Source: a bacterium (GTDB taxonomy: Bacteria > Patescibacteriota > Saccharimonadia > Saccharimonadales > SZUA-47). Taken from it: a DNA stretch of 64,000 nucleotides. Position numbers and translations under genes: made by a program. This document shows, one piece after another, positions 26,806 through 27,585 of the stretch (position 1 is its first letter; every line of letters begins with the position of its first letter). The stretch is taken from the NCBI GenBank assembly GCA_030428125.1, contig JAUIBF010000003.1, positions 1,516 through 65,515 on the forward strand, read 5' to 3'. The notes beneath the pieces are model-generated. The model did not search any database. It worked only from the letters and a program-made list of their open reading frames with translations, and was not told the DNA's origin.

Positions 26806-27585
26806 ATGAGACAAGTTGTAAAGAACGGGTCGTCTAGTGTATTTGGTGATAGGCCTAATATTGAAGTTTTCGATAGTATAGCTGGGCAGATTTCAGCACG
26901 TCGCGATAGTGGCGTATACACAGTTCATGTTTCTTCCGGGGCAATAGCGTTCGGTAGAGATGCTATTGGGGTTGATTCAGAAGAAAAACTTTCAATTCCT
27001 AAAAAACAAACACTTGCATCCATCGGGCAACGGATACTTATGAATCATTGGAGCCAAGCCTATGCTCGATATGGTTATGATGTTGGTCAGGTTTTAGTTA
27101 CAAATGAAGTGCTATCTGGAACTCTTGAGAACCAAGAATCGCATCTAATTGATTTATTCGAACAGCAAGAGGGAATGTTGGTTCAGCCAGTGGTCAATGA
27201 AAATGATTCAGTTGCAGTTAAAGAGATAGTCCATGGTGACAACGACAAGTTAAGCGCATTCGTGGCGAATATGGTCGGTGCAAGGGCACTATTCTTGCTC
27301 GGCACAAAAGCGGGAATACTGCTAGATCACGACGATCCAGAAAGTAGAATCCATTCCGCAAACCTTTCAAACGATTTACCTATCCTTGAGGATATTTGTG
27401 GCGATTCAAACGGCGACGGAGGCACAGGCGGAATGCTAACAAAACTAGAAGCAGCAAAAATATTTTTAAGTGAAGCAAATAGTGCCAACGACAAGGCAGT
27501 CTATATTGCAGATGCAAGAATACCTAATGTGCTCGCGCTTGCCGAGCAAGGTGTGTACGGAACAGAGCTTAGACTAGCAGCCTAA
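26806..27585 (+). CDS. Glutamate 5-kinase-like amino-acid-kinase-fold protein (no PUA domain), in the position usually held by pyrH
   Basis: Blocks VVKNGSSSV, VSSGAIAFGR, KQTLASIGQ, VVNENDSVA, HGDNDKLSA and GTGGMLTKLEAA line up with ProB rather than with UMP kinase. Confidence 0.7.
   Translation: MRQVVKNGSSSVFGDRPNIEVFDSIAGQISARRDSGVYTVHVSSGAIAFGRDAIGVDSEEKLSIPKKQTLASIGQRILMNHWSQAYARYGYDVGQVLVTNEVLSGTLENQESHLIDLFEQQEGMLVQPVVNENDSVAVKEIVHGDNDKLSAFVANMVGARALFLLGTKAGILLDHDDPESRIHSANLSNDLPILEDICGDSNGDGGTGGMLTKLEAAKIFLSEANSANDKAVYIADARIPNVLALAEQGVYGTELRLAA

Follow-up and report, generated by a model that had tools for sequence, protein, structure and literature searches.

The gene that lies between tsf and frr in the 64,000-nucleotide stretch of Saccharimonadales DNA analysed here (contig JAUIBF010000003.1 of assembly GCA_030428125.1, positions 1,516 to 65,515; hereafter the window) probably encodes a functional enzyme of the PUA-less glutamate 5-kinase (G5K) subfamily. 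It would belong to a fast-evolving orphan lineage specific to the Saccharimonadia, situated at an insertion-tolerant junction and not standing in for UMP kinase. In all likelihood the predicted protein is active as a glutamate-type kinase. The genome from which the window derives (G000; 0.96 Mb in 5 contigs, 99.93% complete) encodes neither ProA nor ProC, the partners of this kinase in proline synthesis.

Genomic context of the kinase gene

An earlier note on this DNA, made from the letters and open reading frames only, had described a glutamate-5-kinase-like gene between tsf and frr, and the ORF call together with the Pfam assignments of the flanking rpsB, tsf, frr, uppS and rseP confirms that placement (Table 1). 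The ORF is intact and begins with ATG, 3 nt downstream of an AAGG. It is separated by 27 nt from the stop codon of tsf and by 36 nt from frr, and its composition is native, with the same GC content (0.433) and GC3 (0.331) as rpsB and tsf. A consensus scan found no terminator-like sites between tsf, the kinase gene and frr; the sole such site from the cluster to proS is the hairpin listed in Table 1. The gene is packed like an operon member of rpsB-tsf-frr-uppS-rseP and looks native to this co-oriented cluster. An Rfam scan of positions 24800-32400 found no T-box or other RNA leader, and the sequencing runs containing the locus (biofloc and other metagenomes) are of DNA only, with none listed from RNA.

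Table 1 Features of the tsf-frr locus and its surroundings, in window positions
Feature	Position	Strand	Evidence
rpsB (ribosomal protein S2), start of the co-oriented cluster	25453..26181	+	Pfam Ribosomal_S2, 263 bits
tsf (elongation factor Ts)	26182..26778	+	Pfam EF_TS, 134 bits
Orphan PUA-less glutamate-5-kinase-like gene, 259 aa	26806..27585	+	PF00696, 78 bits; TIGR01027, 167 bits (cut-off 186)
frr (ribosome recycling factor)	27622..28185	+	Pfam RRF, 179 bits
uppS (undecaprenyl diphosphate synthase)	28201..28881	+	Pfam Prenyltransf, 234 bits
rseP-type M50 site-2 protease	28882..30033	+	Pfam Peptidase_M50, 165 bits, plus PDZ
CPBP/Rce1-like membrane protease	30011..30790	+	L076 homologue with PF02517; tblastn 31-43% identity to counterparts in relatives
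Putative terminator-like hairpin followed by a T run	30864..30878	+	Consensus scan only
proS, 419-aa type II prolyl-tRNA synthetase without INS editing domain	30932..32191	+	TIGR00409, 398 bits, above cut-off

The cluster itself varies in composition. In the window uppS adjoins rseP, and neither cdsA nor dxr lies between them, while in several relatives uppS is missing from the cluster and rseP follows frr directly (loci L046, L049, L050 and L054-L056). Elsewhere in the window, a 391-aa ORF (22642-23817, +) between prmC (21733-22599, -) and prfA (23841-24890, -) has no Pfam match, and the same holds for a 309-aa ORF at the matching position in locus L076.

Assignment to the glutamate 5-kinase family

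Profile searches place the protein in the amino acid kinase (AAK) family (Pfam AA_kinase) and, within it, closest to ProB. The best NCBIfam model is proB (TIGR01027, E 6e-49), at a score below the curated cut-off. The runner-up is P5CS at 41 bits, followed by generic AAK matches, and other AAK models match weakly, among them LysW-aminoadipate kinase (32 bits) and argB (15 bits). No UMP kinase model of NCBIfam matches even at E<=1, and the KxSGE and GGGN..RG motifs of UMP kinase (TIGR02075) are absent, which bears out the earlier note's observation that the protein shows no UMP kinase pattern. The HMM assignment to UMP kinase that would have spoken against the note is thus not obtained, the best model being proB. 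All six of the ProB motifs that it had listed are found (VVKNGSS, VSSGAIAFGR, KQTLASIGQ, NENDSVA, GDNDKLSA and GTGGMLTKLEAA), and a domain search agrees with it that the PUA domain is not present. With uppS nearby, an isopentenyl phosphate kinase or polyprenol-type kinase was also considered; it was rejected, as no IPK model matched. Comparison with the NAGK, carbamate kinase and aspartokinase models likewise gave no assignment beyond the weak generic matches.

Structural comparisons lead to the same family. The top five matches of a PDB sequence search are all G5Ks (E. coli 2j5t, 2w21 and 8zpj, Burkholderia 4q1t and Campylobacter 2ako); G5K alone is matched down to E 1e-19, after which the G5K domains of P5CS follow. 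An AlphaFold2 model of the protein, built from a 64-sequence alignment, is of high predicted quality (pLDDT 93.9, pTM 0.92). When this model was compared with the PDB by Foldseek, every one of ranks 1-27 was a G5K or the kinase domain of a P5CS, N-acetylglutamate kinase came next, and UMP kinase appeared at rank 47 at the earliest.

The best match in both sequence and fold is the E. coli enzyme (2j5t, 2j5v and 2w21; E ~1e-26, TM 0.84 for 2j5t, 30-33% identity over the AAK domain). E. coli G5K ends in a PUA domain and has ProA and ProC as its pathway partners, whereas the window protein lacks the domain and its genome lacks both partners. In the PDB alignment, D107 of E. coli G5K, a residue that we take to be linked to proline feedback, is not conserved in the window protein. 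PUA-less ProBs, found for example in Campylobacter jejuni (2ako) and in Bacillota such as the lactic acid bacteria, are single-domain AAK proteins of about 260 aa, as is the window protein. At about 33-39% identity, they agree with it in the catalytic lysines, in the motifs D148-N149-D150 and GTGGM.TK and in the glutamate site at N134 and D137. However, canonical PUA-less ProBs score 279-331 bits on TIGR01027 against 167 bits here, they carry an (S/T)-D pair where the window protein has G-T, and their genes lie with or near proA (P0013 and the proBA loci of the candidate phyla radiation, CPR), whereas no proA or proC occurs in the genome or the class of the window gene. With PyrH, the window gene shares the AAK fold and the position between tsf and frr, but neither a model match nor a fold match of comparable rank.

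The Saccharibacterial kinases as a group score 73-201 bits on TIGR01027, compared with the range given above for genuine PUA-less ProBs, and three near relatives of the window protein (P0002, P0006 and P0011) pass the cut-off at 192-201 bits. Sub-threshold proB-like proteins of other Patescibacteria classes (for example in G430 and G541; 45-161 bits) are similarly divergent, with no proA found. By sequence and by modelled fold, the 259-aa protein belongs to the PUA-less glutamate 5-kinases as a divergent member and is not a UMP kinase. It departs from ProB in three of the features by which membership is judged: its score lies below the curated cut-off, its nucleotide-site pair is changed, and its genome lacks the rest of the pathway. 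A literature search found no paper on G5K in connection with Saccharibacteria or the candidate phyla radiation, and nothing relevant on proB or proline in TM7. 

pyrH and the tsf-frr junction

In many bacteria, the usual occupant of the slot between tsf and frr is the UMP kinase gene pyrH. One reading in the earlier note was that pyrH had been displaced here by a non-orthologous gene, or that an AAK-fold protein had been recruited to its place, so that the G5K-like protein would have taken over UMP kinase function; the location of the gene and the AAK fold common to the two enzymes speak for such an event. The genome search refutes it. Exactly two AAK genes are present in the source genome, and the second is a canonical pyrH (G000:C3:552429-553124; TIGR02075, 259.5 bits against a cut-off of 243.9) with KISGE and GGGNYVRG, located on another contig in a conserved xth-pyrH-smpB neighbourhood. 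Because an ordinary pyrH is present elsewhere, the kinase is not a UMP kinase stand-in; pyrH over the cut-off is also present in 33 of 41 relatives. The glutamate-binding residues retained by the kinase, the failure of UMP kinase models to match it and the rank of UMP kinase structures far under those of G5K add to the case against displacement, to which we assign next to no probability. The note had also reasoned that a bona fide pyrH elsewhere, together with proA and proC, would indicate an ordinary proline pathway that had merely relocated; the whole-genome search found the former and not the latter.

Of the 29 pyrH loci that were examined in relatives, pyrH lies beside xth in 26 and/or beside smpB in 17, and beside tsf or frr in none. 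Its departure from between tsf and frr is therefore ancient in this order and independent of the presence of the kinase. In most relatives tsf and frr adjoin, with a gap of 40-120 nt, or unrelated ORFs intervene, and the "pyrH slot" of Saccharibacterial relatives is an empty, insertion-tolerant junction. A HAD-type hydrolase fills the gap in one locus (L047:742-1501), and other variable junctions hold unrelated ORFs or nothing (L045:2055-2834, L058:652-1495, L067:859-1501 and L052:2052-2467).

A kinase without its pathway

The earlier note had seen no proA or proC in the window, and their absence extends to the whole source genome. There, proA has no match; no member of the aldehyde dehydrogenase superfamily (Aldedh), P5C reductase dimerisation domain, Semialdhyde_dh (ArgC/Asd type), proline dehydrogenase (Pro_dh), glutamine synthetase or 5-oxoprolinase subunit PxpA was found, and no ornithine cyclodeaminase (OCD) exceeded the cut-off. 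Control searches for the absent pathway genes gave matches in the expected reference genomes. Furthermore, none of 301 evenly sampled Saccharimonadia genomes yielded proA (0/301) or a proC over cut-off (0/301). The orphan status of the gene, one of the readings that the note had offered, is strongly supported.

The sole ProC-like match in the source genome is a 213-aa NpdG-like Rossmann protein (putative NADP oxidoreductase; F420_oxidored, 76.5 bits; G000:C3:495806-496441, equivalent to L107:1141-1782, -), which is present in 15 of the 41 relatives. As a candidate replacement for ProC it was rejected, since it occurs in many kinase-negative relatives and is absent from several kinase-positive ones.

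A survey of 301 Patescibacteria genomes yielded proB-type matches in 34, over cut-off in 24 of these, and proA over cut-off in 20. Every one of the 20 proA-bearing genomes has a proB of at least 225 bits, often adjoining proA, whereas all ten sub-cut-off proB-likes (45-166 bits, the window gene included) reside in genomes without detected proA. Four over-cut-off proBs also occur without detected proA, one of them in a genome that is 84% complete. This score pattern, in which high-scoring proB accompanies proA and divergent proB-likes never do, provides a simple rule for flagging orphans. Within the Saccharimonadia, G133 carries a ProB of the CPR type that is full-length and includes the PUA domain (L088:1432-2544; TIGR01027, 273 bits); proA and proC were likewise not found in this genome.

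Distribution and phylogeny in the Saccharimonadia

A profile of Saccharibacterial kinases detects the gene in 22 of the 301 Saccharimonadia genomes, representing 20 of 157 genera. Three contexts account for most occurrences. The first, between tsf and frr, is found in the window, in G008, G015, G007 and G019, and in the metagenomic contigs of P0006 and P0011; G007 and G019 are unpublished, but nothing concluded here rests on them, since the same arrangement is shown by G008, G015 and the public contigs. The second is the order rseP-CPBP-kinase-proS, with a type II ProRS lacking the INS domain, in about ten genomes of several families. In the third, the gene that immediately follows the kinase encodes a ProRS of type I (TIGR00408; G037 and G235), and in G235 lemA lies upstream of the kinase and overlaps it. 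In total, the kinase directly precedes proS, of type II or type I, in about 12 genomes. Nine more kinase loci, from eight genomes, have miscellaneous neighbours.

Several of these loci have further features of their own. ProRS type varies across the Saccharimonadia: the proS of the window and of many relatives is type II, and that of G037 and G235 is the archaeal/eukaryote-like type I (L010:12-1442 and L094:2231-3715). A gene for an RdgB/HAM1-type XTP/dITP diphosphatase adjoins the kinase in two genomes of different families (L092:2921-3484 and L093:2285-2815). G012 encodes two very divergent G5K-like paralogues (L102:418-1263, -, and L103:589-1440, +) with 68% mutual identity and a dN/dS of 0.13, which sit on a long branch; the neighbour of each encodes a small membrane protein. 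In L074, and also in L075, the kinase between tsf and frr is flanked by a 299-aa ORF (L074:3655-4554), whose last base in L074 is shared with the kinase start, and by a 524-aa ORF (L074:5412-6986). Both were rejected as kinase partners, having no Pfam match and no homologue in the source genome.

A phylogeny of the orphan kinases and canonical ProBs was computed by maximum likelihood with a quick search. All 36 Saccharimonadia orphan sequences fall on one side of a single branch, apart from canonical ProB, with a support of 99 against the canonical ProBs and 98 after the canonical ProBs of other Patescibacteria were added. Rooted among the canonical sequences, a root that is assumed and not inferred, they divide into two sister groups, one of tsf-frr kinases (14 rows, support 99-100) and one of proS-associated and other kinases (22 rows, support 99). 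Members of the first subclade always lie between tsf and frr, and those of the second are usually directly upstream of proS. Terminal branches measure 0.6-2.6 substitutions per site, compared with 0.05-0.5 for most canonical ProBs.

The association with proS has a parallel in another CPR class, where the genome G531 has a full-length proB clustered with proA and with a proS of type I. Taken with the proS adjacency in the sister subclade, this parallel suggests that the adjacency in Saccharimonadia may be a remnant of a proline-themed cluster. The kinase gene would then be a residue of that cluster, and its role may still concern proline supply.

Active-site residues and selection

Structural work on E. 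coli G5K, as summarised in PMC11061531, shows glutamate and proline bound by N134 and D137, with N134 positioned by N149 and the Q80/Q100 network, and catalysis by K10 and K217 in a site organised by D150. Across our 64-sequence alignment K10, S50, N134, N149, D150, G212, G213 and K217 are invariant, and conservation reaches at least 90% at G51, A52, D137, E135, E143 and D148 (E. coli numbering). The conserved sites correspond in the window protein to K6, S44-G45-A46, N131, D134, D145-N146-D147, G208-G209 and K213, so that the catalytic residues K6, K213 and D147 (K10, K217 and D150 in E. coli) are the same in all 64 sequences. The glutamate-binding residues (N131, D134, N146, S44-G45-A46, Q75 and Q95) are likewise present, and they are invariant across the tsf clade, which retains Q80 and Q100 of the E. 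coli enzyme. In the proS subclade, Q80 and T211 have been lost and Q100 has been lost in part.

One strongly conserved canonical feature is altered in the tsf clade. At positions 169-170, where S/T-D occurs in 29 of 29 canonical sequences, all 14 tsf-clade sequences have G at the first position and 12 of the 14 have T at the second, corresponding to G166-T167 in the window protein. As we understand the literature on E. coli G5K and N-acetylglutamate kinase, this pair contacts the nucleotide, and its replacement by G-T could reflect a weakened or altered nucleotide use.

Ratios of dN/dS were computed for the three pairs of kinase genes in which dS was still estimable, giving 0.11 for L087/L089 (dS 0.73), 0.11 for L074/L006 and 0.13 for L102/L103. 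Values of 0.11-0.13 indicate purifying selection on the kinase gene. For tsf and frr the ratio is 0.03 in the L074/L006 genome pair, and by this comparison the kinase evolves at the protein level about four times faster than the neighbouring translation factors.

These data bear directly on whether the gene is a decaying relic, left over from a proline pathway that was lost and now serving no function. Intact ORFs in 22 genomes of 20 genera, a dN/dS of about 0.11 and active-site residues that are invariant over a very long tree all argue against decay, as does the tendency of genomes below 1 Mb to shed unused genes. A relic would account for the class-wide loss of the pathway partners, the patchy distribution in about 7% of genomes and the fast protein evolution, but in view of the points against it we regard this explanation as very improbable.

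Possible roles of the orphan kinase

If the protein is an active enzyme of the G5K subfamily, it would use an NTP to phosphorylate L-glutamate, or a compound closely resembling it, at the gamma-carboxylate, giving gamma-glutamyl phosphate. The half-life of this product has been calculated as about 320 ms, and it cyclises to 5-oxoproline (PMC11573504). Free gamma-glutamyl phosphate would thus be converted to 5-oxoproline within a fraction of a second, and an unregulated orphan kinase would waste ATP and glutamate. Because the product is unstable, no 5-oxoprolinase was found and the gene is nevertheless under selection, its maintenance would imply that the product has an unrecognised consumer, that the substrate or phosphoryl donor has changed, or that the kinase has a tightly controlled second role. 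The same apparent wastefulness weighs against an active G5K and argues for a changed or regulated activity; the G-T pair and a score below the curated cut-off, which marks a divergent member, count against it as well.

Gene context gives few clues to such a consumer. No conserved oxidoreductase or transferase neighbour occurs in any kinase context examined, and there are no informative fusion forms, only four distant, unrelated fusions. Two rare long proteins, P0121 and P0122, join the AAK domain to Pterin_bind (501 aa) or to YbeY (458 aa), and may be fusions or gene-calling errors. The source genome shares 398 genes with the other kinase-positive genomes G008 and G314, too many to interpret, and the kinase-negative genome G004 was covered to 39%. 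One complex prediction of the window kinase with its ProRS gave no answer (score 0.00) and speaks neither for nor against binding.

A first alternative is that the kinase performs the initial step of a cryptic proline synthesis whose reductions fall to enzymes of other families than ProA and ProC, or to housekeeping enzymes with promiscuous activity. The source genome, however, has no member of the ALDH, Asd/ArgC-type reductase, P5CR or OCD families that could serve in this way, its only ProC-like Rossmann protein does not co-vary with the kinase among the 41 relatives, and the lack of a conserved oxidoreductase neighbour applies to all contexts. Cryptic synthesis would be in keeping with the intact glutamate site and with purifying selection, as well as with the position of the sister-subclade gene directly upstream of proS of both types and with the clustering of proA, proS and proB in G531; on balance we consider it improbable.

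Similarly, the kinase may have been neofunctionalised after the loss of proA, with a change in its substrate, its phosphoryl donor or the use of its product, for example the activation of a glutamate-like carboxylate for some acceptor. The accelerated protein evolution seen in branch lengths and TIGR01027 scores, the change from T169-D170 to G-T in the tsf clade together with the losses at Q80, T211 and Q100 in the proS subclade, and the separation of all ten sub-cut-off proB-likes from proA in the Patescibacteria survey are consistent with such a shift. On the other hand, the tsf clade keeps every known glutamate-binding or catalytic residue unchanged, and neither gene neighbourhoods nor fusions offer a new conserved partner that would suggest a different substrate. 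We regard neofunctionalisation as a minor possibility beside our preferred reading of a functional G5K-subfamily enzyme.

We also tentatively propose, as one possible explanation, that G5K has a ProA-independent second role, for which selection retains the gene in Patescibacteria that are ultra-reduced and auxotrophic for proline. The enzyme might supply gamma-glutamyl phosphate, or a related acyl phosphate, to an acceptor or as a signal, possibly tied to ProRS or to translation; such a tie would fit the embedding of the gene in rpsB-tsf-frr or beside proS. If this proposal is true, identification of the consumer would bring to light a reaction, or a route to proline, that is new.

The gene is also at risk of misleading annotation, as pipelines would imply an absent proline pathway by naming it "glutamate 5-kinase" or, guided by gene order, would mistake it for pyrH. 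Saccharibacteria live as obligate epibionts and are presumed not to synthesise amino acids, and to our knowledge the only known product of G5K is an unstable proline precursor. A kinase that is under selection without a recognised product-using enzyme is a concrete, testable gap in the picture of Saccharibacteria metabolism.
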